64,000 nucleotides of DNA, taken from NCBI GenBank assembly GCA_013360195.1, contig JABWCQ010000002.1, positions 62,932 through 126,931 on the forward strand. Direction: 5' to 3'. This stretch comes from a bacterium (GTDB lineage Bacteria > Electryoneota > RPQS01). Shown piece by piece: positions 4,088-49,316 of this stretch. Within the stretch, counting starts at the first letter, position 1. Every line of letters begins with the position of its first letter. The notes under the pieces are model-generated. The model worked only from the letters and a program-made list of their open reading frames with translations. It ran no database searches and was not told where the DNA came from. The position numbers and the translations under genes were made by a program.

Positions 4088-4107
4088 CGTTACCAATTGG
4101 ACAAAAA

Positions 4108-4164: not shown

Positions 4165-4182
4165 GGCGGGGGAACTTAAAAT

Positions 4183-4440: not shown

Positions 4441-4522
4441 TCTGTGGGAAAAAACCTTATCTTCTTGAAATTGTTACGACAAACGATCCAGCTCCCTGAT
4501 ACTGTGATAAGGGTCGCAGGAA

Positions 4523-5311: not shown

Positions 5312-5318
5312 CCCAAAG

Positions 5319-8407: not shown

Positions 8408-8421
8408 CAAAGTTATAAAAG

Positions 8422-9138: not shown

Positions 9139-9143
9139 AGCGA

Positions 9144-11387: not shown

Positions 11388-11388
11388 A

Positions 11389-12015: not shown

Positions 12016-12391
12016 TCTTTCGCCAAGTAACGGCTCCGCACCAGACGTTGCGAAGCGCGGTCAATGCGGAGAAAACGCTGCGGTCCAGATGCTTCGTGGC
12101 AAAGGCTACAAAATACTGCATAGAAACTGGCGTTGTCGTGTCGGTGAATTGGATATTATCGCCACTTTCAAGGGCGAACTGGTAATTGTCGAAGTAAAAT
12201 CAGCAGGAAAGGAATCAGAGTTTAAGCCTGAGTTTCGCGTTGGATTCAATAAGCAAAAGAGAATCAAGCGGCTTACCGGTATGTACATGCGATCTGAGCA
12301 CATCGACCTTCCCGTTCGATATGATATTGTGTCCGTCGTGTGGACAAAGGAAAGGATTCAAGTTGAGCACTTTGAGAATGCTTATCGTTAA
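11960..12391 (+). CDS. yraN: YraN-family endonuclease (UPF0102)
   Basis: 'GENAAVQMLRGKGYKILHRNWRCRVGELDIIA...LVIVEVK' PD-(D/E)xK-like YraN pattern; the true start is probably downstream of the 11960 ATG because it overlaps rnhB. Confidence 0.7.
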   Translation: MGRVRFTERLLKALKSYFNLSPSNGSAPDVAKRGQCGENAAVQMLRGKGYKILHRNWRCRVGELDIIATFKGELVIVEVKSAGKESEFKPEFRVGFNKQKRIKRLTGMYMRSEHIDLPVRYDIVSVVWTKERIQVEHFENAYR

Positions 12392-14081
12392 TTTCGCCTT
12401 CATATTTTTAACGGCAGCTCCGCCCGTTGCACTGTGCGGCCTGACAATTTCCGAAGTGATGTTTGATCCGCAAGGTGACGAATCTACTGACGAGTTCATA
12501 GAACTCTATAATGACAGCGCGCTTCCCGTAGACTTACGAGGATGGACAATCTCCGACGGCAGCGGGACTGACACACTTGCGGATGTCGGGCACGGATTAT
12601 TCGCAGGTCCTCGACAATTCGTCCTGGTTATAGACCCTGACTACATTACAGAAGGTAGCTTAACGTACGACGATTTAATCGATGAGTCTGCACTTGTCGT
12701 TTCATTAAGCGGATCAACATTTGGAAACAGAGGACTGTCAAACAGCAGTTCAGAAACGCTATCTTTGTATACGAATCTGGGCGTTCTCGAATCTTCGTAC
12801 GCATACACAATTGGAAATGTACCTGGTCACTCCGATGAGAAGATTCGGTTATCGGGTCCCAATGACTCTACTAACTGGGGCGATGGTGTTTCTCTTCACG
12901 GTACGCCAAGCAGGCGTAATAGTTTAACACCAGTGGATTTTGACTTGCAAGTGGGTTCGATCGAATCGATACCTGATTTTCCTGAGCCGCAATCTATATG
13001 CAGTGTTAATGTAGAGATCTTGAACTCAGGTCTATACCCGCTTTCAGGTGTTCTTTCGATACAAGTCGACACAGTACTGGAAGGCAGCTTTTTCACAATT
13101 CACGATTCCGAAACCGGAACAATTCAGCAGGCGGAAACCCTGTTAGTCCAAAGCAGGTTTATCATGCCTCTGTCAGGTCTGGCAATTGTCATGGCAGCTT
13201 TAGACCAGGAGGACGACAACGAAGCCAACAACTTTCTACTATCGACCGTGTCAAGCGAGTTCGTTGCGAATGGACTTTTATTCAGCGAACTTCAGGTATC
13301 ACCTTTACCCGGACGTGCGGAGTGGATTGAGCTCGTTGCAGCAGGTCCAATTGCTATTTCTACACGCGGTATGTCAATTGGAGACGGAGCTGCCTTTGCC
13401 GACGTGGACGAACGCATTGCCTTGCCTGAGTGGATCTTGGAATCGGGAAGTTTCGCAATAGTTAGCAACGACAGTTCTATTTTTCTGGAAAATATCCCGG
13501 TTGACGTTTCAGTTTTGGTAACCTCCGACGGAAACTTGACTCTTAACAACACGGGCGACTCGCTTGCGCTTTTTTCTCCATCTGGCAGTGTATCCGAAAG
13601 AGTAGACTATCGACAGAGTTGGCTTAGCAGTACATCCGGTGTGTCAATTGAGCGAATCTCAACAGCAGTCGACGCGAACTTGGCGTCAAACTGGTCGAAT
13701 TGTGTTGACGCTGCTGGCTCGACTCCTGGAAGAGAGAATTCACAGAGCTTACAAGTTGGCGAAAGCGGAACGACTTTTTCGATCGCACCTATTATTTTTA
13801 CACCAAATGGGGACGGAATCGACGATGTTGTACTGTTTCGGTACGAGACTGATCCATTCACGTCAGAATGTGAGGCACGGATTTTCGACGCGCGAGGACG
13901 GGAAATCAACCGGGTCAAGTTACAGAACAATGGGTCGGAACTCACAGCTATTTGGGATGGCCGACGTGAGAACGGTGAAACAGCGAATACTGGGCGGTAC
14001 ATAGTGCTTCTTGAGGCGAGCGACGGAAAAGGAGGCACACGCCGCGAACGCCTTACTGGAATTCTTGCTAGACCAAGATGA
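12378..14081 (+). CDS. secreted lamin-tail-domain (LTD) protein with a C-terminal T9SS-type sorting domain
   Basis: Signal peptide 'MLIVNFAFIFLTAAPPVALC'; LTD signature 'ISEVMFDPQGDESTDEFIELYN' and a second LTD-like copy 'LLFSELQVSPLPGRAEWIELV'; C-terminal ~90 aa 'FTPNGDGIDD...GRYIVLLEASDGKG' resembles a CTD/FlgD-Ig sorting domain. Confidence 0.55.
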   Translation: MLIVNFAFIFLTAAPPVALCGLTISEVMFDPQGDESTDEFIELYNDSALPVDLRGWTISDGSGTDTLADVGHGLFAGPRQFVLVIDPDYITEGSLTYDDLIDESALVVSLSGSTFGNRGLSNSSSETLSLYTNLGVLESSYAYTIGNVPGHSDEKIRLSGPNDSTNWGDGVSLHGTPSRRNSLTPVDFDLQVGSIESIPDFPEPQSICSVNVEILNSGLYPLSGVLSIQVDTVLEGSFFTIHDSETGTIQQAETLLVQSRFIMPLSGLAIVMAALDQEDDNEANNFLLSTVSSEFVANGLLFSELQVSPLPGRAEWIELVAAGPIAISTRGMSIGDGAAFADVDERIALPEWILESGSFAIVSNDSSIFLENIPVDVSVLVTSDGNLTLNNTGDSLALFSPSGSVSERVDYRQSWLSSTSGVSIERISTAVDANLASNWSNCVDAAGSTPGRENSQSLQVGESGTTFSIAPIIFTPNGDGIDDVVLFRYETDPFTSECEARIFDARGREINRVKLQNNGSELTAIWDGRRENGETANTGRYIVLLEASDGKGGTRRERLTGILARPR

Positions 14082-33403: not shown

Positions 33404-34813
33404 ATGACACGCAAAATGCTTTGTTGGCTGTTCACACTAGCAGTCGGCATCAGTTCCCATGGTTTATGCGGGGGGATTGATGTCGATTTTGTTTATTTTC
33501 TTGGTGAAGATAGTCTCACATACTGTGAGGTCTACACAGGAGTTCAACGCAGTGAACTTGTCTATATAGCGACACAAGAGGATAGTTCATACGCGCAATT
33601 TTCATTAATCACTACAATAGGAAGAAGTGACTCGATTCTCATTTCGGACACGCTTGACACGATTGACAAGACAAGTCGCACCGAATCTCATTCGGGCGGA
33701 GCATATTTCCCATACATTTCTCGGTACCTTCTGTTTCCAGGCAGCTATGACCTTACGATTGAATTGGTACAAGATAGTGCCGACAACTATGACTGGACGG
33801 AGATAGGACTTGAAGTTCCGTATGTGTCAGCGCAGGCTAGCTTATCTGGAATCGCGCTTGGCGCTGAATTGGCATTCGCAGCTGGTCCATCGGCGTTCAC
33901 AAGAAACGGGCTGCGCTTTGTCCCGAACCCATCAGGATTCTACGGCGCGGAGCTGCCTATGCTCTATTATTACCTTGAATGTTATGGACTGGATACTTTA
34001 GGTCCGGTCGAAGACTCGATAATGGTTCAGCGGCGTGTGATAGACGGCGAAACTGGCCAAGACGCAAAGCAGCCCTCCTTGCGGAAATATGCTCGTCCCG
34101 GTGAGTCACTCGTGATTGCAGACGGATTTCCCGCGTACACTTTGAGGACTGGCACATACATACTGTCTATTCAAGTTGAAGTTCCAAATCAAGCTGCCAG
34201 AGAAGCGATGAAGAAGTTCTACGTGTATCGCAGGGAAGATACCGACTTCTTATCCGCTGACGTAGGAAATAGAGCTTCAAGCATGATCAATTACAATTCT
34301 GAGGGTGGCATCCTGGAGACGATTGATCCAGATAGTGCGCTGGAATTGTTGCACTACCTCTTGACGAGACAGGAGATGAGGCGTGCAAGGGACATGGACT
34401 CAGAAGGAAAGCGGAAGTTCATTGCAGACTTCTGGAAGCGACGCGGTCCAGAAGAGGCTGACGCTGCCAATGTCCATTATTCGCGAGTTGCAGAAGCGAA
34501 TAGGCGCTACAGTTTTCTTAACCGAGAAGGTTGGAGAACTGACCGTGGACGTGTCTTCATTTTGTACGGTGAACCTGATTTTGTCGACCGCCGATATGCC
34601 GATGCTGCAGGACTAGACCACGAGATTTGGCACTATGACAAGATAGAAGGAGGAGTTCTCTTTATTTTCGTTGACCAAGCCGGCTTTGGCGACTTAACCC
34701 TTGTGCACTCGACAAAGCGTGGAGAGATTTACAATCCCAACGCACTAATTGTGAAGCAGAACCAGAACCCGGCTTCAAAACTCATCGAACAGGGGAGAGG
34801 TCTTCGTGAATGA
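33404..34813 (+). CDS. secreted GWxTD-domain protein
   Basis: Signal peptide 'MTRKMLCWLFTLAVGISSHG'; C-terminal 'REGWRTDRGRVFILYGEPDFVD...HEIWHYD' matches the GWxTD motif family. Confidence 0.55.
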   Translation: MTRKMLCWLFTLAVGISSHGLCGGIDVDFVYFLGEDSLTYCEVYTGVQRSELVYIATQEDSSYAQFSLITTIGRSDSILISDTLDTIDKTSRTESHSGGAYFPYISRYLLFPGSYDLTIELVQDSADNYDWTEIGLEVPYVSAQASLSGIALGAELAFAAGPSAFTRNGLRFVPNPSGFYGAELPMLYYYLECYGLDTLGPVEDSIMVQRRVIDGETGQDAKQPSLRKYARPGESLVIADGFPAYTLRTGTYILSIQVEVPNQAAREAMKKFYVYRREDTDFLSADVGNRASSMINYNSEGGILETIDPDSALELLHYLLTRQEMRRARDMDSEGKRKFIADFWKRRGPEEADAANVHYSRVAEANRRYSFLNREGWRTDRGRVFILYGEPDFVDRRYADAAGLDHEIWHYDKIEGGVLFIFVDQAGFGDLTLVHSTKRGEIYNPNALIVKQNQNPASKLIEQGRGLRE

Positions 34814-35572: not shown

Positions 35573-36310
35573 GTGGCACCAGCTTTGCGCAATCTCCGAA
35601 TCATGCGCAAACTCGATAAGATTCAAGTTTTTCAAGTATCTACAGGTTTCTTTGGCGCCTTTGATTGTGCTGCAGTCCAGACACTTCTGCTCGCGCTGAA
35701 GTGTCGAGACGTGAATACGTACTTTCATAGTATGCGTGTTTCTGGTCTGGCATCCGAAATGGGCAGCATTCTTGGCTTAAGTGCAAGAAGTCTCGAGGAG
35801 TTGGCAATCGCCGGACTTTTGCATGACATCGGCAAGATCGGATTGCCAGACAGTGTGCTCCAGAAGAGCGGCAGGCTATCAAAGACCGAGAGGGGAGTCG
35901 TGACTCAGCATCCGGAATTGAGCGCAAGTATTATTGCACCATTGCCTGGATTTGAGCGAGTAAGAGAAATTATTGTCCAGCATCACGAGCGATTCGATGG
36001 ATCAGGTTACCCGGGTATTCGAAAAAGTGACGGGATCATGATGGAAGCTCGGGTTCTGACAATTGCCGACGCATTCGATGCAATGGTGTCGGAACGCCCC
36101 TATCGCGATCCTCTTTCGAGTCGCGAAGCATTGGCACAGATTGAACGTGAAGTGGGTACTCAGTTCTGCCCGGTTGGCTTTCAAGCTTTGCTCGAAGTCT
36201 TTAGGGAAGGACAACGACTGGAACCAGGCCGCCAAAGGGAAATCCGGACCGGGATTGACTCCCTGGTCACAACTCTTGGAACCCCCAAATCATTAACGTT
36301 ATGTTTATAA
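35573..36310 (+). CDS. HD-GYP domain phosphohydrolase (putative c-di-GMP phosphodiesterase), no receiver or sensor domain
   Basis: 'HSMRVS', 'LLHDIGKIGLPD', 'HHERFDGSGYPGIRK' HD and GYP motifs; starts 2 nt after the ABC gene stop. Confidence 0.8.
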   Translation: MAPALRNLRIMRKLDKIQVFQVSTGFFGAFDCAAVQTLLLALKCRDVNTYFHSMRVSGLASEMGSILGLSARSLEELAIAGLLHDIGKIGLPDSVLQKSGRLSKTERGVVTQHPELSASIIAPLPGFERVREIIVQHHERFDGSGYPGIRKSDGIMMEARVLTIADAFDAMVSERPYRDPLSSREALAQIEREVGTQFCPVGFQALLEVFREGQRLEPGRQREIRTGIDSLVTTLGTPKSLTLCL

Positions 36311-36578
36311 TAAATTTAAGATTCGAGTTTTGAATCGGATTTTTTTCGATTTCCAGTGAGCAGTGTTGCGCAAGCCATTGCGATTTATTATATTTATCAA
36401 TTGTTGGAAAGTGAATTTAGGAGTTCAATGTCCCTTCGTTAGAGGTTTTCGAGGCTCTGCCTTATTTTACGTTTTTGTATTGTAAACGACACCTCTAACA
36501 CGGCGTGCATTTGCTCCGGTTCGTTGCTTCTATGGCCGAATGGACAATCCGCTCCGTTCGGTTTTTTCATTTCACCTA
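36311..36578 (+). promoter_or_regulatory. long AT-rich structured leader/promoter region upstream of the porU-like gene
   Basis: 268-nt non-coding region, the largest in the window; contains inverted repeat GTTAGAGGT(36438-36446)...ACCTCTAAC, a T7 run and TATTATATTTAT. Confidence 0.3.
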
Positions 36579-39500
36579 ATGTTGAAAACTAACTCGCTCA
36601 GAATACGCGCTATAGTGTTGGTTTGCGCAGTGTTTGCTTGCCATGTCTCATCTGCAAGTGAAGTACGAGTTGTTTCTTCGGACGATTCGGGTGTTGAGTT
36701 TGTCTGGTCGTCGGGAATTCAATCCGCGAAACTGCACGGCACGAGTGATCTTCGGGCGGTATTGAGATCTGCGGATTGGATTACCCAATCTGGTGCTTTG
36801 ATTCCCGTCATTAAGTTGCTTGTCGCTTGTCCGACGGGGTCGACACCGCGACTGGAGGTTCAGAGGGTTGAAACGCGTTTGTTAAACATGGACCTTCCTC
36901 CAGCTGAGGAGCTGCCCGAAGTGTCCAGTGCAGTGAACACCGATGTTCGGATTTCTGGTGTTGAACAATGGCGCGGCTTCACGATTGCCCATATCGAAAT
37001 TAGGGCGGCCAGTCCATCTTCGCAGGGGACATCCGTACTTGAAACAGTGCATGCGACCGTGCGTTTTGTTGGCGGTTTGGATCAAAAGGGTCCGTTCGCC
37101 CGCGAAGAAAAGCTGCTGAAAGACTTGGTTATAAACGGTCGGGAAGCGACCCACTGGTGGACTCCTAGTTCCCGGATTTTGCAGAGTTTGGATGCTTCGA
37201 ACGAAGCTTGGCCCGACATTCAGCTTCACAAACTGGCCGTCACAGAGACAGGCTTCCACGTGATGACCGCCGAATGGCTTCAAGTTCAGGGGATTCAAGT
37301 CGTCGGTGTAGCATCGGACCGGATTCGAATGTTTGGGAACGGGGGGAGGCTTCTGCCTGCCGGTCTCATAAGCGTCCCCGATTCAGTGTTAAAGGAAATT
37401 TCGATTCTCATTGAAGATGGGAATGACGGGAGTATTGACCAAGGAGACCGAATCATCTTTTATGGCGAAGGTCTAAAGGGTTTTGATTACTGTGACGGGA
37501 GTCTGCTGAACGACCATGGCCATGCAAGTCCCTATTCAATGGAGAACATCTATTGGATTGGGATTGGGGGGGCTGACGACCAGGGACTTCGTATGGACAC
37601 AATTCAGAGTCTCAGTCAAACAGTACCAGTCGATACAGTTCTGGGCCAAGTCTATTTGGATCAGGAACAATTCATCTATGCGGTTTCCGGCTTGCAGTCA
37701 AATTCCGGTGTTGTTTGGTATATGGCAACGCTTGATGCTTCTAGCACACGTACCATCTCAGTCAATTTGGATGCAGTAAGTTCTGGCAGAGGTTCACTTA
37801 GAATTCGCATGGATTCGATATCGGGAAGCGGTAATAACTTCAACGTTTATGTCAACGACACACCGGTCAGCATAGGCGCCTATACAACACCGCTTACTAT
37901 TCAGATTCCTGAAGGAGTATTTCGGACAGGTAGCAATACAGTAAGATTCGAGAATAATACGACCAGGCAGGTCTTGTTGAATTACATAGAAGTTGAGTAT
38001 GACAAGACCTTGCAGTCAGCCACAGGTGTTATTGAGTTTCCGGCGCCGCGTAATCAAACCGGTGCTTTTAGATACGAAACTGGTTTGAATCAGGATGCAT
38101 ACTTGGCAGAAATATCTAATCCCTTGAGTCCGCGCATCGCGAGAGGGTCTATAGTAACAGACTCAAGTTTTGCTACAGGACAACGAAGATACTTTGGCGC
38201 TAATCAAGGGGGCAGCAGATTTCGTACACCGGTATACAGGGGCAGGAAGTCTTTTGACGCAAGCGACTACCAGATGCTTCGTGACCAAGCGAATGAGGCC
38301 GGTATAGTGATAATCACATACGATGACTGGTACGACGAACTTGAGCCGCTCATTGCCATGCATGCCCAGTATGAAGAAGAGCCTCTTAAGGCTGTTAGAG
38401 TTAAAATCTCGCATATTTATGATGAGTTCTCTTGGGGTGTGAAGGATCCGACAGCAATACGAAATTTCTTACGCTATGCACACGAGAATTGGCGTGGCCC
38501 TGCAGGAAACGCTGAGTCTCCAAGGTACGTGTTGTTCGTCGGCGATGGAGATTATGACTACAGAAATCTCACTTCAAGTTCTGACGATAATTGGATTCCG
38601 CCGTGGGAGAGTCTCGGCACGTGCACAGACGACTACTATGTGGACTTTGATGACTCGGAGTCTTTGCTTGACATGATGTCGGGTAGATGGCCAGTGCAAT
38701 CAGCCTCGGAAGTCGAAGCAATCGTTGAAAAGACCGTAAACTATGCGTTAACGCCTCTTTATGGACCCTGGAAGAACACCGCGACTTTTGTGGCTGATGA
38801 TGAATGGAAAAGTGGATTCTGCAGTGAAGATTTTCACACCGAGGATTCCGAAGACTTGATTAACGACGTATTGCCGGAGTACTTTACGTTCAGAAAACTG
38901 TACCAGATTCTCTATCCTTTTCGTCAATCGACCTCGACCTCACTTAAACCTGACGGTACTAGGGACCTGATTGAAACAATTAATTCCGGCACTCTCCTTG
39001 TCAATTATGTTGGTCACGGGAATGAACGAGTGTGGACAGATGAGCAACTGTTCGTGATGGATAGAGATTTCCCGCTGATTGACAACCATCGACTTTGGCC
39101 GGTAATTGTTGCCGGAACATGTACGTGGGGAGGTTTTGACCGACCCAACGAAAGATGCTTCCCTGAACTTCTTCTTGGTGCCGATGATATCGGATCTATT
39201 GCTTGCATTGCCGCGACGAGATTCACATTCGTTTCGCAGAATCAGCTTCTGACAGAAGAGTTTTATCGTGAGATATTTCGACAAGGGATCGAAATGCGGC
39301 GGAGTCTGGGCGAGGCTCTGCTTCTTGTCAAGCCGCTTCGGGCTGACAATAAGCTTTATCATACGCTTGGGAATCCAGTCTTGCGGTTGGCAACTCCAGA
39401 GTATTTCGCTCACGTGGATCAGAGGGACGACTCCTTGCAGGCAGGTGGGCTTTTTCAGCTGAGCGGGTTTGTCTCACGCACAGATGACTCAAATGAGTCA

Positions 39501-40532
39501 CACCAGTCTCCTCAGCGTCGGAACATCGATGAGGACGTGTGGGCGGACTTTCAGGGCATCGTTGAGGCACGAGTATTTGACTCCGAAGACTCAGCAGCTT
39601 ACTATTTCCCAAATCCTGCGAATTGCAGTGTTCCCTTGCAAACACCATTTTATTATGGGCTGCCTGGCAATGCAATTTTCCGCGGCAGGTCTTCAATCGT
39701 AAATGGAAGATTTAACGTTGTGTTTCGCGTGCCACGCGATATTCAGTATGGTGGCGAGAATGCAAAAGTCAGTCTCTACTTTTTTGGAAAATCAGAGAGT
39801 GAAAGTGACTCGGCGGATGGGATTGGCATCGAACAGCCACTTAGGATTGCAAGCGCAGCAGCGGCTGTTACTGATACAGTACCTCCCGTAATCGGTGCCT
39901 GGCTCGAAAATACGTCCTTTCGGTCCGGTGACCAAGTCAGCCGCTCACCGCGCTTAATAGTTCGATTAAGTGACGAATCGGGCCTCAATCTGTCAGGCGA
40001 AGTCGGTCACAAGATAACAGCCCGAATCGATGAAGCCCAAGCAGAGGACATAACGCAGTTTTTCAATTATGACGTAGATAGCTACACAGATGGTGAGCTA
40101 GTTCGAACCATTGGTCCGCTTTCTGAAGGTTTTCATCGCTTGACCGTCGAAGCTTGGGATTCCTTTAACAATCTGAACTTACAGACCTTGGATTTTGTCG
40201 TGGGTCAGCAGGCCGAAGAGGGATTTGCAATAAACGACGTCTTAAACTGGCCGAACCCGATGTCATCTGAAACTTATTTCACGTATTCTTTAACGCAGGA
40301 AGGGACGAGAGACGTCAGGATACGTGTTTTCACAATCAGCGGAAAGCTGGTGGCTGAATTAGACGGCCTTGGGACCAGGCAGCTTTACAACAGTAATAGT
40401 GATCGGCCGTGGCTCGGCCGAGATGATGAAGGATATGAGTTGGCGAACGGAGTTTACTTCTACAAGGTGATTGCCACACATGAGAGAGGATACTCAGCCG
40501 AGGCGACCGGTAAGCTCGTTATTTTGCGATAA
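36579..40532 (+). CDS. porU: C25-family (gingipain-like) cysteine peptidase with T9SS C-terminal domain, PorU-like sortase candidate
   Basis: Signal peptide 'MLKTNSLRIRAIVLVCAVFACHVSSA' (start set at ATG 36579, in frame with the 36540 ORF); C25 His/Cys dyad context 'VNYVGHGNERVW' and 'VIVAGTCTWGGF'; 'YVLFVGDGDYDYR'; C-terminal 'WPNPMSSETYF...NGVYFYKVIATHERG...KLVILR' sorting domain; immediately followed by a porV-like gene, as in P. gingivalis and F. johnsoniae. Confidence 0.6.
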   Translation: MLKTNSLRIRAIVLVCAVFACHVSSASEVRVVSSDDSGVEFVWSSGIQSAKLHGTSDLRAVLRSADWITQSGALIPVIKLLVACPTGSTPRLEVQRVETRLLNMDLPPAEELPEVSSAVNTDVRISGVEQWRGFTIAHIEIRAASPSSQGTSVLETVHATVRFVGGLDQKGPFAREEKLLKDLVINGREATHWWTPSSRILQSLDASNEAWPDIQLHKLAVTETGFHVMTAEWLQVQGIQVVGVASDRIRMFGNGGRLLPAGLISVPDSVLKEISILIEDGNDGSIDQGDRIIFYGEGLKGFDYCDGSLLNDHGHASPYSMENIYWIGIGGADDQGLRMDTIQSLSQTVPVDTVLGQVYLDQEQFIYAVSGLQSNSGVVWYMATLDASSTRTISVNLDAVSSGRGSLRIRMDSISGSGNNFNVYVNDTPVSIGAYTTPLTIQIPEGVFRTGSNTVRFENNTTRQVLLNYIEVEYDKTLQSATGVIEFPAPRNQTGAFRYETGLNQDAYLAEISNPLSPRIARGSIVTDSSFATGQRRYFGANQGGSRFRTPVYRGRKSFDASDYQMLRDQANEAGIVIITYDDWYDELEPLIAMHAQYEEEPLKAVRVKISHIYDEFSWGVKDPTAIRNFLRYAHENWRGPAGNAESPRYVLFVGDGDYDYRNLTSSSDDNWIPPWESLGTCTDDYYVDFDDSESLLDMMSGRWPVQSASEVEAIVEKTVNYALTPLYGPWKNTATFVADDEWKSGFCSEDFHTEDSEDLINDVLPEYFTFRKLYQILYPFRQSTSTSLKPDGTRDLIETINSGTLLVNYVGHGNERVWTDEQLFVMDRDFPLIDNHRLWPVIVAGTCTWGGFDRPNERCFPELLLGADDIGSIACIAATRFTFVSQNQLLTEEFYREIFRQGIEMRRSLGEALLLVKPLRADNKLYHTLGNPVLRLATPEYFAHVDQRDDSLQAGGLFQLSGFVSRTDDSNESHQSPQRRNIDEDVWADFQGIVEARVFDSEDSAAYYFPNPANCSVPLQTPFYYGLPGNAIFRGRSSIVNGRFNVVFRVPRDIQYGGENAKVSLYFFGKSESESDSADGIGIEQPLRIASAAAAVTDTVPPVIGAWLENTSFRSGDQVSRSPRLIVRLSDESGLNLSGEVGHKITARIDEAQAEDITQFFNYDVDSYTDGELVRTIGPLSEGFHRLTVEAWDSFNNLNLQTLDFVVGQQAEEGFAINDVLNWPNPMSSETYFTYSLTQEGTRDVRIRVFTISGKLVAELDGLGTRQLYNSNSDRPWLGRDDEGYELANGVYFYKVIATHERGYSAEATGKLVILR

Positions 40533-40563: not shown

Positions 40564-41610
40564 ATGAAGAAGCGGATTTTTGCAATCTGCCTGACTTTGC
40601 TGGGAGTTTTCACCCATCAAGTGTATGCTGCGAGTGTAAGTCAAGCAACATTGCTCTTCCTCAAAATTGCACCTGGCGCGAGACCAGCCGGAATGGGCGA
40701 GACCTTTGTCGCCCTGGCAGATGACGCTACTGCGACGTGGTGGAATCCTGCCGGGCTGGCATTTCAGCGCGGTAATGAAGTGACAATGATGTATTCACGT
40801 TGGCTGCCCCAGTTCAATCTTTCAGACCTTTATTACGCGTTTCTGAGCGGCACTTACGAAGTACCTGAATGGGGCACATTTGGAGCGAACATCGTGTTCC
40901 TAAATCTTGGTGAGACACAGCGAACCGGCCCGTCAGGCGAGGCCCTTGGTACGTTCTCATCCTATGAAATGGCGGTGACAGGTACATACGGTGCACTCAT
41001 TGACGAGAACACTTCAATGGGTGTCGGCCTCAAGCTTGCATATAGTAATCTTTCACCTGTCGGTGCAGGTGCTGAGCAAGGCAAAGGAACTGCAACTGCA
41101 ATCGCCGCGGACATTGGCTTGTTGCACAAAGCCACTTTCATGCCTGGCCTCTCGCTCGGAGCAAATTTGTCAAACATGGGACCCAAGGTGTCCTATATCG
41201 ACCGTGCGCAAGCCGATCCTTTGCCAACAACATTGAAATTTGGAATTGCGTACAAGATTCTTGACCAGGAGTATAACAAACTGACCATCGCATCTGACGT
41301 TGACAAGGAACTTGTCAAGCGTGACGAATTCGGTAAGTCAGATGAGTTCTATGAGGCACTTTTCTCGGCCTGGGGTGACGGAGATCTTGTGAAGTCACTG
41401 ATTTGGCACGTGGGTGCCGAGTATTGGTATTCAACTCTCGTTGGTCTTCGCGGTGGTTACTACAATGACCATTTGGGACGGGTATTTCCGTACACGTTTG
41501 GCGTATCTTTGAAATACAGTACGTACCGATTTGATTTCAGTTATCTGACCGCCGGTGAGAATCACCCGTTGACAGACACGATGCGCTATTCACTCTCGGT
41601 GGATTTCTAA
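40564..41610 (+). CDS. porV: PorV/LptO-family outer-membrane beta-barrel
   Basis: Signal peptide 'MKKRIFAICLTLLGVFTHQVYA'; hallmark N-terminal 'FLKIAPGARPAGMGETFVALADDATATWWNPAGLAF'; alternating beta-strand pattern; C-terminal '...YSLSVDF'. Confidence 0.55.
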   Translation: MKKRIFAICLTLLGVFTHQVYAASVSQATLLFLKIAPGARPAGMGETFVALADDATATWWNPAGLAFQRGNEVTMMYSRWLPQFNLSDLYYAFLSGTYEVPEWGTFGANIVFLNLGETQRTGPSGEALGTFSSYEMAVTGTYGALIDENTSMGVGLKLAYSNLSPVGAGAEQGKGTATAIAADIGLLHKATFMPGLSLGANLSNMGPKVSYIDRAQADPLPTTLKFGIAYKILDQEYNKLTIASDVDKELVKRDEFGKSDEFYEALFSAWGDGDLVKSLIWHVGAEYWYSTLVGLRGGYYNDHLGRVFPYTFGVSLKYSTYRFDFSYLTAGENHPLTDTMRYSLSVDF

Positions 41611-41701
41611 ACTGAAAACTCTTGCCTTAATCGGACTTATCGCTGCCTGCCTTTCTGGTTGGTCAGCGCCCGTTTCACATTTCCCGAGCAATCGAGTTCA
41701 T

Positions 41702-44566
41702 GTGAGATCTCTTGACGAGCCTTGGCCGGCCGGTCAGCCTATACGCTTATGTGCTATACGAGTCGAATTTCTGGAGGATAACCTTACCGGAACAACCGGT
41801 ACAGGAAAGTTCAATAGCGGCTTTCCAGATACCCTTACAATTGACCCATTGCCCCACAATCGCCAGTATTTCGAAGACCATCTTGCGTTCATGCAAGACT
41901 ACTTCAATACAGTTTCTAAAGGCATGGTCACCTTTGAACGGCTTGACGTGTATCCGCTCGCACATGACAGTGCCTACACTCTGTCATTCCCTATGTGGCA
42001 CTATAACCATAATTCTGATACGGCTTTGTTGAATCGCCGGCTTGTTGAACTTTTTGCACAATCCACGACCCTGGCTTCATCGGACATCAATTTTGAATCG
42101 TACGATGCAATTCTCGTCTTCCATGCCGGAGTCGGGAAGGACTTCAATATTGGCTTCGACAATACGCCATTTGACATTCCATCCGCCTACATTTCAGAAA
42201 GTGACCTTCGCCGATACAATCTTAACTTACCTTCAGGTGTAACGCGTGGCCTGATCCTTCCTGAAGGTCAGAATCAAGACGAAACCCTCCAACTTGGCGT
42301 CGAACTATCGTTGAATGGTGTCATGATCAAGCTTTTTGGCAACTGGCTCGGCATGCCTGACCTCTACAATACAGAGACAGGCGCGAGTGGCATCGGAAGG
42401 TGGGGTATGATGGATCAGGGATCGGGCAATGTTAATGCAATGGTACCTGCGTATCCCGATGCTTGGTCCAGGGTGTTCATGGGGTGGTCAACTGCAAACA
42501 CAGTGCTTCCTGGCGGAGCCGTGGACACAATCTCCTTGGCACGTCCCGGTAGCGATTCCATTCCAGATATAGTGAAGATTCCAATTTCCGCGAACGAGTA
42601 TTATCTGCTTGAAAACAGGAATGCAGATGCAGATTCGGTGGGTCATGTCGCACTTTATGATCGCGACGGGCGACTAATGACCGTTGACCTCCTCGGCAAT
42701 GTGTATGTTGAGACTGACTTCAAGATACCAGTGCGTGCATCACACTATGATTTTGGAATTCCAGGAAGCGGCATCCTCATATGGCATATCAATGACAGTG
42801 TAGTATCAGCGAATTATTCAACAAATCGAATAAATGCGAACCCGCAATACAGAGGTGTCGATCTGGTTGAGGCCGATGGGTCACAAGATATTGGCCGTGA
42901 ATACGGGTTTGCGACCGCGGGATCCGGCACAGAGTTAGGAGTGCAGGAAGATTGCTGGTACCGCGACAACCGAACGCATAGAAACGCTAACGGAGGCACG
43001 GCATTCGTCAGGTTCAACAACAATACTCGTCCGGCAGCCGTGACTAACGATCAAAGAAAGTCGTACTTGTCGATCGAGAATTTCAGTGATATAGACTCAG
43101 TAATGTCGGCTATGGTGTCGAATTCGATAGCAATGGACGGTTTTCCTGTTCAGCTTGGCACGAATTCTCCGCACAATTGGTCACTTGCCGATATTGATCT
43201 AGACGGCAAACAGGACGTATGCTTTCAGAAAGATAATGAAATTCGTGGAATAGGTAGTGATTCCGGCTTGACCGTACTGAAACGATTTGAAGCGAATGTC
43301 GAGTTCGACTTGCGAGCAAGCCGTTATCCAATAGATGTGAACGATAACGGACACAATGAGATATGGTATGTCGCTGGAAATGACTCATTGGGATTCGTGG
43401 AAGTTACAAATGTTGGTACAATTCAGCGAAATGCTGCTTTGCCAGTAAGTTCGTTTTCAATTGCTAGATTAGAATTCTTGGATACCGATCCAAATTTGGT
43501 AGTGCTCTTTCAAGGGAATGGGACCATGGATTTTCCGAGAAGAGTCACTATTTTCAATTCAAGCCTGAACCTTATTCTTCAGCAGGAAGTCGATTGGGGC
43601 GGATTTCACGGGTTGTCAAATCTGACGTCAGTAGCAGCAGGCAATGTCCTTTTCTGGAGCTCAGACAGGGCACTGCTCTTGGACATTTCAGATTCCGCTC
43701 GCGTTGTTTGGAATGTTGTGTTACACAATTCAAATCAACCCACGATAATCTCTGGACCGGAATCATCGGAGATCTATTTCCCAAATAACGGCTATGTCAA
43801 CTTCGATTCTGGGGCGTTGATTTGTCCAGCTTCAGAATGCCTAGAACCTATAGCCGACTGGGATCAGGACGGTGTAATTGATGGTGGCGGTTCGCGCGGC
43901 GCAGATCACACGCCACGAGAGGACTTTCCTTTCCAAAGTTTGAACATGGATGAGCTGTTTGACCTGAATTTTGATGGTTTTCCAGATCTCTTGCGAGTTA
44001 CCAATGAAAGCAGCAGTTTAACCGATCTCGAAAGCTCGACTGTTCATGCTTTTGATCATCGAGGAGCGCGATACTCCGATTTTCCACTTGTAACATTAGG
44101 AAGACCAACGATCGTCACCCTGGACACTACTGAGCGCAGGTACTATGCGATAACTGAATACCGCAGCGGCAGTCACCACGTAATTGGTCTGCTTCGGCTT
44201 CCAATAGTGCCTGAAGGTCAATCAGCCAAGTCCTATGCAGACGTCGAGAACAGGATAATTTTCCTCGGTCCGTTGCAGAATGAAGTGCACAGCAGGGAAG
44301 AATTCGTATATGTTTGGCCAAATCCGACAAACGCAATTGCTAACTTTAGGATTACATTGCCTTATGCCGCTTCAGTCGAAGCAAAAGTGTTTGATCTTGC
44401 GGGCCGATGCGTGGCAAACTTAAGTACGGAATCAAGCTACGCAGGAACTTTTGACCTTCAGTGGGATACAGTTACAGTTGAGAGTGGAGTGTACTTGGGA
44501 AAAGTATTAGTACATGGTGGTGGTCAATCCCGCGAGAGCACCATCAAGATTGCTGTAGTGAAATGA
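41702..44566 (+). CDS. large exported protein: M6-(InhA)-like domain with substituted zinc-site residues + FG-GAP/VCBS-like repeats + T9SS C-terminal domain
   Basis: 'IKLFGNWLGMPDLYNTETG' aligns to the M6 'HEFGHxLGLPDEYD' zinc site, but H/E/H are K/L/N; FG-GAP-like 'DIDLDGKQDV', 'DWDQDGVIDGGG', 'NFDGFPDLL'; C-terminal 'FVYVWPNPTNAIANFRITL...GVYLGKVLVHGGG' sorting domain; the ORF-track GTG start gives no signal peptide, but the in-frame upstream extension encodes one. Confidence 0.5.
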   Translation: MRSLDEPWPAGQPIRLCAIRVEFLEDNLTGTTGTGKFNSGFPDTLTIDPLPHNRQYFEDHLAFMQDYFNTVSKGMVTFERLDVYPLAHDSAYTLSFPMWHYNHNSDTALLNRRLVELFAQSTTLASSDINFESYDAILVFHAGVGKDFNIGFDNTPFDIPSAYISESDLRRYNLNLPSGVTRGLILPEGQNQDETLQLGVELSLNGVMIKLFGNWLGMPDLYNTETGASGIGRWGMMDQGSGNVNAMVPAYPDAWSRVFMGWSTANTVLPGGAVDTISLARPGSDSIPDIVKIPISANEYYLLENRNADADSVGHVALYDRDGRLMTVDLLGNVYVETDFKIPVRASHYDFGIPGSGILIWHINDSVVSANYSTNRINANPQYRGVDLVEADGSQDIGREYGFATAGSGTELGVQEDCWYRDNRTHRNANGGTAFVRFNNNTRPAAVTNDQRKSYLSIENFSDIDSVMSAMVSNSIAMDGFPVQLGTNSPHNWSLADIDLDGKQDVCFQKDNEIRGIGSDSGLTVLKRFEANVEFDLRASRYPIDVNDNGHNEIWYVAGNDSLGFVEVTNVGTIQRNAALPVSSFSIARLEFLDTDPNLVVLFQGNGTMDFPRRVTIFNSSLNLILQQEVDWGGFHGLSNLTSVAAGNVLFWSSDRALLLDISDSARVVWNVVLHNSNQPTIISGPESSEIYFPNNGYVNFDSGALICPASECLEPIADWDQDGVIDGGGSRGADHTPREDFPFQSLNMDELFDLNFDGFPDLLRVTNESSSLTDLESSTVHAFDHRGARYSDFPLVTLGRPTIVTLDTTERRYYAITEYRSGSHHVIGLLRLPIVPEGQSAKSYADVENRIIFLGPLQNEVHSREEFVYVWPNPTNAIANFRITLPYAASVEAKVFDLAGRCVANLSTESSYAGTFDLQWDTVTVESGVYLGKVLVHGGGQSRESTIKIAVVK

Positions 44567-47500
44567 GAGCAATTTTGCTGTATCTACTTGTTGTCGCGAC
44601 ATTCTCGTCGATTGCCGTTGCGCAAACTGCAGAGTTTAACAGGCCACATTTGGAGTGGATGTCGTTTGAGACGGAGCATTTCATAGTACATTACACGAGT
44701 GGTTTGGAAGATGTTGCCAACATGGCAGCGGATATTGCGGAAAGAATTCATGATCCGCTCTGTCAGGTATACGACTACTATCCCGACACGAAAGTGTCCC
44801 TCATTTTCTCCGACGTTGACGATATTGCCAATGCCGGTTCTTACTTTCAATCAAACAAGATTAAGTTCTACGCAACCTCGATGGCTTGGGACTTTCGTGG
44901 TACACATAATTGGCTGCGAAACGTTGTTACACACGAGTATACGCACATGATCCAGCTTGGCGCAACAAGAAAGTGGTCACGGCGCTTCCCAGCTTTCTAT
45001 GTGCAGGCCTTAGGTTACGAACCCGAACGGCGACCCGACGTTCTATATGGCTACCCGAATACACTTATAAGCTGGCCACTTCCGTCTGTTACAATCCCAG
45101 CTTGGTTTGCTGAAGGAACTGCGCAGTACCAATTTGACGGTGCAGGTTACGATTATTGGGACAGTCACCGCGACATGTTACTTAGGCAGTCAGTCCTTTC
45201 AGATCGTCTTTTGACCTTGGAGGACATGGGTTTTTTTGGAAAAACGAGCCTGGAATCCGAGGGTGTGTACAATCAAGGATTCTCTCTTGTAAAGTATATT
45301 GCAGATAGAAGCAACGGAGTAGAGACTCTTGGCCAGATTTCACGAAAGATGTCGTCGCTTTTACCAGTTACGTTGAATAAGGCTATTGAAAGTGTAACAG
45401 GAAAATCCGGCACGGATTGGTACAACGAGTGGAGTGCTGAACTTCGCACAAAGTATGGTGAAACTAAGAGCATGCTTCTACCATACCTTTCCACATTTGA
45501 TACTCTCGAGAAGTCGGGATTCGTCGGTGCTTATCCTGAATTCTCGACCGATGGTAATAGCCTCCTGTTTATATCAAACTCCGGTCGAGAGTACTTTGGA
45601 CAATCATCTCTGTACTGCTACAATCGACAACTTGATTCCATTTCACTGATTGCACCATCCGTCCAAGGCAATGCATGCTGGGTGCGTGGGGATAGTTCGG
45701 TAGTTTTTACAAGAAGAACGTCAGACAATCCGCATGGTGCGCTGATTTATGATATTTATGCATACGACGTAAACAATAAGCGCGAAGCGCGACTTAGTCG
45801 AGGATTGCGAGCGGAGCATATTGATGTGTCACCTGATGGGAAATACCTGGCATTCACGATTAACGAAGCTGGCCGAAGAGAAATTGCAATTGCCAAGATG
45901 CCTGAACTTGGCAAGTCAATGACCCCATTCGGCAAGGAATCAATACTGTATCGTTTGCCCACATTGCCTCATGAGCAGTACTATTTGCCAAAGTGGTCGC
46001 CGGACGGGCGCAGAATTGCTGCAGCACATCATCTTGATAAGGGACGCAACATACGTGTCTTCCTGTTTGATTCAACATCCGTAGAATTGACTCTGGATTT
46101 GGAAGTGAGCGGAAAAGGAGCCGAGCTTAGAGATCCATCTTGGGCTGCTGATAACAGACATTTATATGTCTCTTATGATGAGAGCGGCATTCAAAACATC
46201 TATAAGCTGTCACTGGAGAATGAGTCTCTTGAAAGGTTGACCGTGGTACTCGGCGGCGCTCATTACCCTGACGAGAACAACGGCAGTTTAGCTTTTGCAG
46301 AGTTTTGTAATGACGGTTTCCGGATTTGCGTAATGGATTCAATCACTCCTGTACGACTTCCACGGAATTCACTTGACTTGGCTGTTTCAAATTATATGGC
46401 AGGTATACCGCGCAATGAGGATATTCCAAGCCCCGTCATTCGAAATGCCTCGCCCTATCGTCCACGATTTGAATCGCTGTATTGGTTTCCGCGAATTGCT
46501 TTTGACTACAATACTTTCAAGCCAGGCACTTATCTCGTTTTGAATGATGTCCTAGACAAGATGACATTTATTGGCGGCGCTGCGCTTAATCAAAAGCGTG
46601 AATATGACATATATGGTCTCGTGGAGTACAAACAGTTTTATCCCACAATATTTGCAGAATACTTTAACATACAGAGAAGACTCACTTCATTTTTCGCCGA
46701 CTCCTCGCGAATTATTGGTGAGGTTGAAGGACCTGATGGCATCAATCCGATATATGATGAGTATAGAATCAGGTATAGATACAATTTAAATGAAGTAAGT
46801 GTCGGACTTGGCGTCCCCCTCAGTTCTGGAACGAACATTAAGTCACGGGCAACATATGATCAGTATGTTGCACACAACCGATTCGACGATGAATCGAGTG
46901 TCAGCCTTACCTATTTCAGAGGGTGGTCATGGAAGACAGGTGTATATACGGATTCCCGCCGCCCAGGTTTGTACACGGAAATTAGTCCAAACAGTGGCTA
47001 TCGAGGCTATTTTGAATACACGAGAGCAAACCATGACTTTATCAGCGATATAGAGATTGGTGGTGATGCCATTGGACTGCGCGAGATATACGACCCCAAT
47101 AACTATGGGCTCTTTGAACTTGGCCTTGAAAAATATTTCAAGTCTCCTATCCACGACCATACAGCTGAAGTTCGCCTTAAGGCTGGATACATGGATGAGA
47201 ACGTAGATCCATTTTTCTATCAATATGCCGGGGGCTTGCCGGGGATGCGGGGCTACTCGTTCTATAGCCTTGGCGGGACTCGAACCGCGGTTGCGACACT
47301 AACGTATCGCTTTCCGCTCATCAGCAGAGCGGCTTTGGGATTGTGGCCGCTTTCGCTCAACAGGGTTTTTGGATCGCTATTTGTTGATGCTGGAGATGCA
47401 TGGGTGGGTGACTACACGGACCGCACGATAAAGAAGGACATCGGTGCAGGTATTCGGGCTCAACTTCATTCCTTCTATTCTTATCCAACTGCAGTTTCTA

Positions 47501-47673
47501 TTGATGTTGCTTATGGCCTGGATGAATTCGATGTAATTGAAGGTGATGTCCTGACCAGTTACGGCGACGAATTGCGCTACTACCTGACCGTTCTGTTTGA
47601 CTTCTACACCCCGATAATTCCACCTGCCAGACATCCGTCAAGCTGCCTCTGTTCGAATTGTACACACAATTAG
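44563..47673 (+). CDS. exported fusion protein: zincin (HExxH) domain + TolB-like beta-propeller + C-terminal Omp85-like beta-barrel
   Basis: Signal peptide 'MRAILLYLLVVATFSSIAVAQ'; 'VVTHEYTHMIQ' HExxH; propeller blades 'EFSTDGNSLLFISN', 'DVSPDGKYLAFT', 'WSPDGRRIAAA', 'SWAADNRHLYVSYD'; C-terminal ~350 aa beta-rich with 'GGLPGMRGYSFYSLGG' (Omp85 loop-6 VRGF/Y-like) and '...YYLTVLFDF' beta-signal-like ending, followed by a 22-aa tail. Confidence 0.45.
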   Translation: MRAILLYLLVVATFSSIAVAQTAEFNRPHLEWMSFETEHFIVHYTSGLEDVANMAADIAERIHDPLCQVYDYYPDTKVSLIFSDVDDIANAGSYFQSNKIKFYATSMAWDFRGTHNWLRNVVTHEYTHMIQLGATRKWSRRFPAFYVQALGYEPERRPDVLYGYPNTLISWPLPSVTIPAWFAEGTAQYQFDGAGYDYWDSHRDMLLRQSVLSDRLLTLEDMGFFGKTSLESEGVYNQGFSLVKYIADRSNGVETLGQISRKMSSLLPVTLNKAIESVTGKSGTDWYNEWSAELRTKYGETKSMLLPYLSTFDTLEKSGFVGAYPEFSTDGNSLLFISNSGREYFGQSSLYCYNRQLDSISLIAPSVQGNACWVRGDSSVVFTRRTSDNPHGALIYDIYAYDVNNKREARLSRGLRAEHIDVSPDGKYLAFTINEAGRREIAIAKMPELGKSMTPFGKESILYRLPTLPHEQYYLPKWSPDGRRIAAAHHLDKGRNIRVFLFDSTSVELTLDLEVSGKGAELRDPSWAADNRHLYVSYDESGIQNIYKLSLENESLERLTVVLGGAHYPDENNGSLAFAEFCNDGFRICVMDSITPVRLPRNSLDLAVSNYMAGIPRNEDIPSPVIRNASPYRPRFESLYWFPRIAFDYNTFKPGTYLVLNDVLDKMTFIGGAALNQKREYDIYGLVEYKQFYPTIFAEYFNIQRRLTSFFADSSRIIGEVEGPDGINPIYDEYRIRYRYNLNEVSVGLGVPLSSGTNIKSRATYDQYVAHNRFDDESSVSLTYFRGWSWKTGVYTDSRRPGLYTEISPNSGYRGYFEYTRANHDFISDIEIGGDAIGLREIYDPNNYGLFELGLEKYFKSPIHDHTAEVRLKAGYMDENVDPFFYQYAGGLPGMRGYSFYSLGGTRTAVATLTYRFPLISRAALGLWPLSLNRVFGSLFVDAGDAWVGDYTDRTIKKDIGAGIRAQLHSFYSYPTAVSIDVAYGLDEFDVIEGDVLTSYGDELRYYLTVLFDFYTPIIPPARHPSSCLCSNCTHN

Positions 47674-47686: not shown

Positions 47687-48670
47687 ATGGAGTATAAAAT
47701 GCGCTCCCCACACGTTTATCGTATCATCGTCGCACTGACAGTCCTGTCTATGATTCCCATTACCGGGTTTGCCGGGGATTTCGGTGTGTCACCACATCGT
47801 GCGCAATTCGCAGCGCCGGATTTCGGACAAGCTCCTGCTGAAGAGACATCACCACCAGACTTAGGTGGGAAGAAGAACGTCGGGCGCGCAGTCATGTTCA
47901 GCTTGATTGTGCCGGGTACCGGCCAACTTTATTCGGGATCTTGGCTTAGGGCACTTCCTTGGTTTGCCGTTGAAATTGCCGGTTGGGCATTATTCTCCCA
48001 GTACCACGCCAAGGGAACTGACAAGACGGATGAGTTTGAAGCTTTTGCAGGACCGTGGAAGAATAACGATCCATCAAACGGTAATTTCAATTATGACGCC
48101 TATATGGTGCGTGAGTACCAAGTAGCCTCCAATGAGACGTTTGCGCCAGTTCAATATGAAGGCAGTTTCGAAGATTGGTTGACCCTTGAGTGGGAAGATA
48201 GATCATCGCACCTTCCAGCGCCTTACACACACGATATTCAAACTGGAGATCGACAGCAGTATTATGAGATGATTGGCAAGTACTTCGAGCAATTTGGATT
48301 CGGATGGATTGACACGTATGACCGATCAGTTCCACTAAATGGCTCTACTCCTGAAAATATTTGGAGTGTTGGCGGCGACGACATTGCTACGGTCAAGTAT
48401 GATGGACAGAGTCAACTCTTTTTCACATACCGAGATATGCGAGGTGAGGCGAATGACCTTCTCGAAAAGGGCAATACTATGATGGAACTTGTCTTGGTTA
48501 ATCATGTGTTGTCAGCCCTCGATGCTGCGTTTGCAGCACGAAGCTACAATCGCAAGCAGGAATCCGCTGGACTGGGTTCAATGGACTTGAACTACCGAAT
48601 CAGAGCAGATAGGGAAGGCGATCTGACCAGAAGCCTCACTCTTAGCATGCCGCTTCCCAGGCTGAACTAA
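47687..48670 (+). CDS. secreted DUF5683-like protein
   Basis: Signal peptide 'MRSPHVYRIIVALTVLSMIPITGFA'; 'MFSLIVPGTGQLYSGSWLRALPWFAVEIAGW' motif, as in the Bacteroidetes DUF5683 '..LPGxGQxYN...' family. Confidence 0.4.
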   Translation: MEYKMRSPHVYRIIVALTVLSMIPITGFAGDFGVSPHRAQFAAPDFGQAPAEETSPPDLGGKKNVGRAVMFSLIVPGTGQLYSGSWLRALPWFAVEIAGWALFSQYHAKGTDKTDEFEAFAGPWKNNDPSNGNFNYDAYMVREYQVASNETFAPVQYEGSFEDWLTLEWEDRSSHLPAPYTHDIQTGDRQQYYEMIGKYFEQFGFGWIDTYDRSVPLNGSTPENIWSVGGDDIATVKYDGQSQLFFTYRDMRGEANDLLEKGNTMMELVLVNHVLSALDAAFAARSYNRKQESAGLGSMDLNYRIRADREGDLTRSLTLSMPLPRLN

Positions 48671-48701: not shown

Positions 48702-49316
48702 ATGTATCGTACCATGGCCACTGTGCTATGCCTGTGCTCCGTTGCATTCGCGCGAGAGCCGGGGCAAGCGCTTTTTCTCAAGTCTCTGCTGATTCCGGGT
48801 TGGGGGCAATATGAAGCTGGAAGGACGGATCATGCGTTAGCATTCTTGGGTGTAGACTTGCTACTGATTGGTTCTGCACTGAGTCTCCATCATCATGGAA
48901 GTCAGCTCCGCGATGATTATAAAGCGTTTGCATCGACACACGCAAGAGTCCGTGGAGATCACAATCGCGAGTTCTACATAGACGTTGCAAATTGGATGAG
49001 CGTGTACGATTATAATGACCAACGAATGTCGGAACGCAACTTTGGTGCGGTTTATGACACTGATTCGCAATATTGGATGTGGGACTCGGAAGCGAGTAGA
49101 TCGTATATGGATGAACTTAGGCTCACGTCGGATCGCTCCCTGAATCGCGTGATCTATGCAGTTGCACTAATCGGAGTCAATCACATTGTGAGCGCATTTC
49201 ACGCCGGTCGCCTCCAGTCCAACGCTGCGAAATCTGAGACAGGTCATTTCGGATGGAACGCACACCCTGTGACGACGTCTGACGGAGGCAAGCTCCAGTT
49301 CCTACTTTGGTGGTAA
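48702..49316 (+). CDS. secreted DUF5683-like protein (paralog of the previous gene)
   Basis: Signal peptide 'MYRTMATVLCLCSVAFA'; 'FLKSLLIPGWGQYEAGRTDHALAFLGVDLLLIG' shares the PGxGQ(L/Y) + TM motif with the upstream gene. Confidence 0.4.
   Translation: MYRTMATVLCLCSVAFAREPGQALFLKSLLIPGWGQYEAGRTDHALAFLGVDLLLIGSALSLHHHGSQLRDDYKAFASTHARVRGDHNREFYIDVANWMSVYDYNDQRMSERNFGAVYDTDSQYWMWDSEASRSYMDELRLTSDRSLNRVIYAVALIGVNHIVSAFHAGRLQSNAAKSETGHFGWNAHPVTTSDGGKLQFLLWW

Follow-up and report, generated by a model that had tools for sequence, protein, structure and literature searches.

OmpZ, a WD40-Omp85-type protein encoded among type 9 secretion system genes: a putative outer-membrane-tethered zinc protease

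The Omp85/TpsB superfamily has been split into ten subfamilies, one of which, termed 'WD40-like' or 'WD40-Omp85', is defined in its Table S2 by PF07676 repeats ahead of a PF01103 barrel without POTRA domains (Heinz and Lithgow, 2014; PMC4104836). In this survey, Phyre2 comparison of the members (Table S3) assigned the barrel to BamA/TamA and the propeller to TolB, with a column 'best aminopeptidase hit' filled with 1z5h, 4kxd, 4fgm and 4ar1, and the only function offered was an analogy to a BamA-BamB fusion; about 60 sequences were covered, the zincin domain was not stressed and neighbours belonging to the type 9 secretion system (T9SS) went unmentioned in the text consulted. A 2024 summary ascribes 'divergent WD40 and peptidase domains' to the subfamily (PMC11358297). 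The present work deals with a 1036-residue protein of this type, named OmpZ here and encoded at 44563..47673 on the + strand of a 64,000-nucleotide stretch of bacterial DNA, hereafter the window (GenBank assembly GCA_013360195.1, contig JABWCQ010000002.1, positions 62,932 to 126,931; lineage Electryoneota). From N- to C-terminus, OmpZ carries a gluzincin-type metallopeptidase domain, a TolB-like β-propeller and an Omp85-type β-barrel, an architecture regarded as virtually certain, and its gene belongs to a cluster with T9SS sorting genes that is conserved across related loci, which makes a functional link to this secretion system probable.

Unless otherwise indicated, the coordinates below refer to the window and its + strand, and those given for a related locus (L numbers) to that locus. 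As read from the sequence, the open reading frame (ORF) of OmpZ begins with a Sec signal peptide at residues 1-20 (44563..44622), namely MRAILLYLLVVATFSSIAVA then Q, with an AVA motif and, in the AlphaFold2 model, a hydrophobic helix at residues 2-19; cleavage would occur after residue 20. This model of the full-length protein, built on 40 relatives, has a mean pLDDT (predicted local distance difference test) of 82 and a pTM (predicted template modelling score) of 0.81, the latter indicating that the three domains are arranged in a defined way; it shows an alpha/beta domain (~30-308), about 24 strands (322-591), an all-beta region (640-1011) and a disordered tail. An NCBI entry from a metagenome assembly, 'hypothetical protein HUU59_01715 [bacterium]', is 100% identical to OmpZ.

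Regarding the metallopeptidase domain, at about residues 26-312 (44638..45498), the only HExxH across the 1036 residues is HEYTH (residues 124-128, 44932..44946), a zinc-binding and catalytic motif with H124, E125 and H128. Because the fold matches that of gluzincins, E184 (45112..45114), which lies within WFAEG, is the probable third zinc ligand, i.e. the gluzincin glutamate; helices 117-134 and 180-188 of the model carry the HExxH and E184, respectively. In an alignment of 40 sequences with 35-76% identity to OmpZ, the basis of the residue counts out of 40 given here, H124, E125, H128 and E184 are invariant (40/40), and HExxH is present in 75 of the 76 full-length relatives recovered from the related loci; such invariance of the catalytic residues argues for an active enzyme. 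None of the Pfam and NCBIfam peptidase family models tested is fitted by OmpZ, Peptidase_MA_2 reaching 17 bits, below the Pfam cut-off, while matching 31/40 family members. In a Foldseek comparison, 49 of the top 50 matches of the N-terminal domain are catalytic domains of M61, M9 or M1 peptidases (probability 0.96-1.00, TM 0.35-0.56, E down to 5.7e-4), including M61 aminopeptidase, M9 collagenase domains and M1 enzymes such as the tricorn-interacting factor F3 (1z1w, the same protein as in 1z5h), as well as 4fgm and 4ar1, the sole non-peptidase being a TFIID subunit (7edx_B). The gluzincin catalytic-domain fold is thus what the N-terminal domain displays, and as a PDB sequence search with its profile gave no meaningful match, it is by fold and motifs that the domain is assigned to the peptidases. 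The isolated model of this domain (residues 26-315) has a pLDDT of 68, a lower confidence than these residues reach in the full-length model, and was therefore used for the fold class only. M1 aminopeptidases were rejected as the family of OmpZ, since neither the exopeptidase motif GxMEN nor MEN occurs anywhere in the protein; the enzyme is for this reason not called an aminopeptidase and is considered instead a putative active zinc endopeptidase.

The second module, at about residues 316-592 (45508..46338), is by structure a six-bladed, TolB-like β-propeller, its blades being marked by S/T-x-DG signatures (residues 328, 423 and 479) and by AADNRHLYVSYD. Pfam PD40 matches OmpZ at E 7.8e-9 and the TolB match of NCBIfam is partial (E 2.6e-14); DPPIV_N of Pfam matches 27/40 members. 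TolB itself was rejected as the family of OmpZ, the equivalog TIGR02800 scoring 53 bits against a cut-off of 343 with only propeller positions 240-353 covered, i.e. the propeller alone matches. A linker without POTRA follows at residues 593-639 (46339..46479; pLDDT 52-69 over 601-620), in which a PRIAxDY motif is kept in the family consensus, and no POTRA family appears among the Pfam matches of OmpZ or of the 40 relatives.

The transmembrane β-barrel occupies residues 640-1014 (46480..47604) and has BamA, Sam50 and TamA as its nearest structures. The Pfam match to Omp85 (PF01103) exceeds the gathering score, marginally, with 25.5 bits against 24 (E 1.2e-5), and BamA or TamA as the family of OmpZ was rejected, the models of both scoring 10-13 bits, far below the NCBIfam cut-offs (TamA 12.9 bits against 625, BamA 12.1 against 297). 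The loop-6 motif (V/I)RG(F/Y) and the motif (F/G)xDxG are signatures of the Omp85 family. In OmpZ, the alignment places the former within GGLPGMRGYSFYSLGG (residues 890-905, 47230..47277) as M-R-G-Y at 895-898, and the latter as F940-V-D942-A-G944 (47380..47394) on the strand after loop 6. Around loop 6, G890, G891, G894, G897, Y898, Y901, S902 and G905 are invariant and either R or K stands at 896 in 39/40; position 940 is F or Y in 40/40, position 942 D or E in 39/40 and G944 is present in 40/40. Going by what is known of the family, such conservation argues for a barrel whose interior is canonical, loop 6 being inserted in it. The string YYLTVLFDF, in which F1012 is invariant and F1014 nearly so, has its last residue at 1014, leaving 22 more to the stop; the tail after LFDF (47605..47670) is disordered (pLDDT <30) and variable, with 1-22 residues among the 40 relatives. 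In OmpZ, this tail includes a CxCxxC motif (CLCSNC) within residues 1028-1036 (47644-47670). What OmpZ shares with the Omp85/TpsB superfamily is therefore a C-terminal barrel of the BamA/FhaC type with loop-6 and FxDxG motifs and, with WD40-Omp85, the PD40 propeller before the barrel and a gluzincin-like N-terminus. The 'Metallo' subfamily of Omp85 proteins was rejected as a home for OmpZ, being defined in the 2014 survey by PF00149, a different domain, and not by a zincin (PMC4104836).

A preliminary description, made from the letters of the window, had already proposed a zincin, a TolB-like propeller and an Omp85-type barrel without POTRA domains in a 1036-residue ORF. The ORF and all the strings it quoted are present in the translation, the three modules are borne out by profile hidden Markov models (HMMs), fold comparison and conserved motifs, and the lack of POTRA agrees with the Pfam matches. 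Among the profile searches it suggested, those with PD40 and PF01103 give matches and Peptidase_MA_2 stays sub-threshold; of the two outcomes it named as fatal to its reading, neither occurred, the C-terminus being an Omp85-type barrel and not a soluble β-sandwich or propeller, and the HExxH region having a peptidase fold of the gluzincin kind. Where it erred is in taking the architecture as unrecognised: this was catalogued in 2014 as WD40-Omp85 (PMC4104836). The architecture of OmpZ is thus not new, while its T9SS gene context was not found in the literature searched.

This literature, restricted to open access as in all the searches mentioned here, was queried for T9SS together with Omp85, PD40, Ignavibacteria or Calditrichaeota, for DUF5683 and for WD40-Omp85, and only the 2014 survey and passing citations were retrieved, though a paper on the cassette may exist. 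One paper on an 'Aim operon' of Porphyromonas gingivalis was set aside as it deals with an ordinary BamA region and not with WD40-Omp85. Relatives of OmpZ were found in at least 591 species genomes, with one genome scanned per species. The N-terminal zincin domain alone retrieves 2212 protein clusters at 50% identity, 781 of them at E<=1e-10, and in the 150 best-scoring clusters it is N-terminal, mostly in proteins of ~1000-1200 residues, from which the three-domain architecture looks fixed. The database names of these relatives are uninformative, e.g. 'PD40 domain-containing protein' or 'Tol biopolymer transport system component'. The member listed in 2014 as H1XQ58 is presumably from Caldithrix abyssi and may be the same protein as the relative in the C. 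abyssi-labelled genome examined here (L019); this relative is full-length, 38% identical to OmpZ and encoded in the same cluster.

The cluster in the window starts with the gene of PorU, the T9SS sortase (36540..40532; NCBIfam T9SS_sortase 633 bits against 420, Pfam Peptidase_C25 E 1.6e-77), followed by that of an outer-membrane barrel of the PorV/PorQ family (40564..41610; NCBIfam PorV_fam 284 bits against 90), for which the PorV equivalog model yields 202 bits, below its cut-off of 250. The next gene (41702..44566) encodes a protein of 954 residues, an inactivated metalloprotease of the M6-like type that has FG-GAP-like repeats and, at its C-terminus (C-terminal domain, CTD), a sorting domain of T9SS type A, as recognised by NF052323 of NCBIfam (415 bits, below the cut-off of 600) and Por_Secre_tail (E 2.8e-6). 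Its stop overlaps the start of the OmpZ gene by 4 bases (ATGA), and from this arrangement the two genes are predicted to be translationally coupled. Just downstream of OmpZ are two genes for DUF5683-like membrane proteins, the first paralog (47687..48670) with the motif PGTGQLYSG and a Pfam DUF5683 match at E 4.8e-4, below the cut-off, and the second (48702..49316) with the motif PGWGQY and cross-matches to the first in related loci; no relevant paper on DUF5683 was found. The porU, PorV-family and CTD genes are as the preliminary description had them. Its 'cargo gene' indeed encodes a CTD, whereas the product is not an arbitrary cargo, being a conserved, inactivated M6-like partner. That related T9SS gene sets have come to the attention of curators is evident from the NCBIfam models 'T9SS-dependent M6-like inactivated metalloprotease', 'PorU2' and 'PorV2'.

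Concerning the conservation of this organisation, the six-frame ORFs of 80 related loci were searched with the neighbours in the window and then with HMMs from the matches, the counts being limited to loci with enough flanking DNA. These loci, spread over many phyla of the Fibrobacteres-Chlorobi-Bacteroidetes (FCB) type, are labelled as Calditrichota, KSB1, LCP-89, Ignavibacteriota, Bacteroidota, Kryptonia, Neomarinimicrobiota, Latescibacterota and others, and across them the same-strand order PorU, PorV, M6-like protein with CTD, OmpZ and two DUF5683 proteins recurs. An M6-like gene lies directly upstream of the OmpZ homolog in 63/64 loci, a PorV-family gene upstream in 61/62 and a DUF5683-like gene directly downstream in 65/67. 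PorU directly precedes PorV in 34 of the 51 loci with room for it, as counted with stricter criteria once the cross-matches due to the sorting domain shared with the M6-like protein had been removed. The survey of genomes that had been advised in the preliminary description, together with the link to porU/porV it anticipated, is thereby answered by a cluster conserved in almost every related locus examined. As for the M6-like partner, HExxH is absent from 61 of its 63 full-length homologs, consistent with a pseudo-protease.

The loci departing from this arrangement are instructive as to its core. In L048 (KSB1), which is without PorU, housekeeping genes precede the other five genes, all intact, and both downstream genes match Pfam DUF5683, so that the core cassette would consist of the PorV-family, M6-like, OmpZ and two DUF5683 genes. 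The only locus without the cassette is L073, where the homolog (9932-13042, +) divergently adjoins the gene of a 2198-residue SprA/Sov (3156-9752, -), the T9SS translocon. More remote relatives, with ~35% identity over the N-terminal domain, occur in L081 (Raymondbacteria) and in L086 (a metagenome contig); both have a PorV-like gene and a large gene directly before the OmpZ relative, the latter gene with a sorting domain in L081 and without Pfam match in L086. In L085, only the large upstream gene is kept, with a FlgD_ig-type match and a 4-base overlap with the OmpZ relative. The PorV-like genes of L081 (4344-6536) and L086 (1615-4059) are much longer (730-814 residues) with faint Reg_prop matches, as though an additional propeller-like domain had been fused to a PorV barrel. 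In L083, a gene for a 369-residue PQQ/BamB-like β-propeller (12955-14064) comes directly after a distant relative and hints at a possible association of the BAM (β-barrel assembly machinery) type in that lineage. The T9SS association is very strong in a large clade and not universal for WD40-Omp85.

Taken together, the coupling and co-location of OmpZ with the M6-like, PorV/PorQ-family and DUF5683 proteins, and usually with PorU, point to an accessory of the T9SS sorting and attachment module. After Sec export, the C-terminal ~375 residues of OmpZ would fold in the outer membrane as a BamA-type barrel, with the zinc endopeptidase packed against the six-bladed TolB-like propeller as a module on the inner face of this membrane. 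To our knowledge, all Omp85 proteins solved so far have their pre-barrel region in the periplasm, and the protease-propeller module of OmpZ is by the same token expected to face the periplasm. The propeller may provide a platform for substrate binding or gating, as in propeller-gated peptidases. At the outer membrane, the protease may act on CTD-bearing substrates or on its own M6-like partner, either processing them or clearing those that stall or are mis-sorted. The proposal as a whole, that is, OmpZ as a putative outer-membrane-tethered, periplasm-facing protease serving T9SS sorting and attachment, is given an even chance of being right; the particular topology and substrate are held tentatively, the chance falling a little short of even.

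Several points weigh against this proposal. The cell surface is where PorU and CTD proteins act, across the membrane from a protease predicted to face the periplasm. Relatives in a Fibrobacter metagenome-assembled genome (MAG), in a Chitinivibrionales MAG and in L083 have no T9SS genes nearby, and with such distant members the T9SS role may be clade-specific rather than ancestral. Besides, the Pfam Omp85 match of OmpZ is marginal and only 9/40 family members have such a match (E<=0.01), and the literature search returned no experiment on any WD40-Omp85 member.

One alternative is an outer-membrane protein assembly or quality-control factor, in which a BamA-like insertase, a BamB-like propeller and, as added here to the 2014 suggestion, a BepA-like protease would be united and act generally or on the T9SS barrels PorV and Sov, the synteny then reflecting a client relationship and not cargo sorting. 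The closeness of the barrel to BamA, Sam50 and TamA, the conserved loop-6 RGY and FxDxG of functional Omp85 barrels, the relatives without T9SS neighbours, among them the one in L083 followed by a PQQ/BamB-like propeller, and the likening of WD40-Omp85 to a BamA-BamB fusion in the 2014 survey (PMC4104836) all agree with it, as does BepA, a zinc protease docking on BAM for quality control. OmpZ is however without the POTRA domains that receive substrates in BamA and TamA, the neighbour most tightly conserved with it is no barrel protein but a secreted pseudo-protease with a CTD, and its propeller is six-bladed and TolB-like, not of the eight-bladed BamB type (PMC11358297), so that an assembly factor appears unlikely. 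The surface location of PorU and of the CTD protein in the P. gingivalis model would rather suit a self-exporting surface protease of the type Vd or two-partner kind, whose barrel would translocate its own N-terminal module to act beside PorU and the M6-like partner, e.g. by degrading cleaved CTD fragments and freeing PorV. A precedent within the Omp85 family is PlpD, whose N-terminal enzyme domain is brought to the surface by the protein itself (PMC4104836). Yet PlpD and TpsB proteins have POTRA domains that OmpZ lacks, a folded zincin plus propeller of ~600 residues would make a large passenger, a module packed fixedly on the barrel instead of a released one is suggested by the high pTM, and the data hold no indication of a cleavage site; self-export is accordingly deemed rather improbable.

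With propeller-gated peptidases such as dipeptidyl peptidase IV (DPP IV), prolyl oligopeptidase and tricorn being common, and DPPIV_N matching the members counted above, OmpZ could also be an ordinary envelope peptidase for housekeeping, i.e. peptide scavenging or turnover, next to T9SS genes for no functional reason; the genes beyond the cluster downstream, RmlD, PCC and dNK, are unrelated housekeeping genes. A synteny found in 61-65 of 62-67 loci over many phyla, with the predicted translational coupling, is nonetheless far beyond chance, and even the rearranged homolog of L073 lies beside SprA. In view of the synteny, a housekeeping role is very unlikely.

Returning to OmpZ as a protease of the T9SS sorting and attachment module, a wider concept could be drawn: in most FCB-type phyla outside the well-studied Bacteroidia and Flavobacteriia models, this module may comprise an unrecognised sub-complex of the PorV/PorQ-family barrel, the M6-like protein, OmpZ and the two DUF5683 proteins, in which OmpZ would be the missing protease recycling PorV or disposing of cleaved or stalled CTD substrates. 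This idea is speculative and more doubtful than not. WD40-Omp85 has been an uncharacterised branch of Omp85 since 2014, and the cluster and the invariant catalytic residues now give a concrete hypothesis for it, suggesting that T9SS sorting has extra parts in bacteria other than the Porphyromonas and Flavobacterium models. Cultured carriers in which this hypothesis could be tested include Caldithrix abyssi; Ignavibacterium, Melioribacter and Rhodothermus may, going partly by the 2014 list, be further candidates.

Other features of the window and of the related loci were recorded alongside. At 41612-41701, in frame before the listed GTG 41702 of the M6-like gene, a signal-peptide-like KLKTLALIGLIAAC with a possible lipobox is encoded; as it stands before the first ATG, GTG or TTG, the gene probably starts upstream of 41702, at a non-canonical codon, or else its start is mis-called. 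An HD-domain gene (35573-36310) directly precedes porU, likewise in several of the closest loci (L001 and L004-L009), and a 469-residue GWxTD-domain protein is encoded a few genes upstream of porU (33404-34813). Further away, a 613-residue protein (12240-14081) combines a Lamin Tail Domain with a type-B T9SS sorting signal (CHU_C), so that the window encodes T9SS cargo of a second kind. Over positions 1-58400, essentially all ORFs of at least 200 residues are on the + strand, - strand genes appearing from ~58.5 kb. A scan for promoters and terminators over 35-52 kb gave counts no higher than in shuffled sequence and is thus uninformative on operon limits. As for the taxonomy of the loci, L001, L003, L004, L008 and L020, which have homologs 59-74% identical to OmpZ in the same synteny, bear titles such as 'uncultured Alphaproteobacteria bacterium', and L005, whose homolog is 53% identical, goes under 'Candidatus Puniceispirillum'; such bin labels seem mistaken. 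Since several metagenome bin labels are unreliable, the statements on phyla rest on the better-labelled records.

Compared with the systems described so far, OmpZ departs from BamA and TamA in what stands directly before the barrel, POTRA domains in the latter, an enzyme and a propeller in the former, and from TolB of the Tol-Pal system in being membrane-embedded and in carrying a protease. To the clan MA(E) gluzincins (M1, M9 and M61), it is alike in the HExxH with a downstream Glu and in the fold of the catalytic domain, a likeness at fold level only with 10-17% identity. The association of BAM with BepA similarly places a zinc protease at an Omp85 barrel, as a pair, where OmpZ is one polypeptide. 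Regarding secretion, no Omp85-zincin component was found in the P. gingivalis T9SS papers retrieved; the PorQ-PorZ pair of this species resembles the cluster in joining a PorV-family barrel and a CTD-bearing, propeller-containing, non-catalytic protein beside PorU, the M6-like partner being without homology to PorZ as far as compared. The closest likeness is with WD40-Omp85 itself (PMC4104836): the domain order is the same, all three modules belong to the same fold families and no structural difference sets OmpZ apart, so that it is best considered as a further member of this subfamily.

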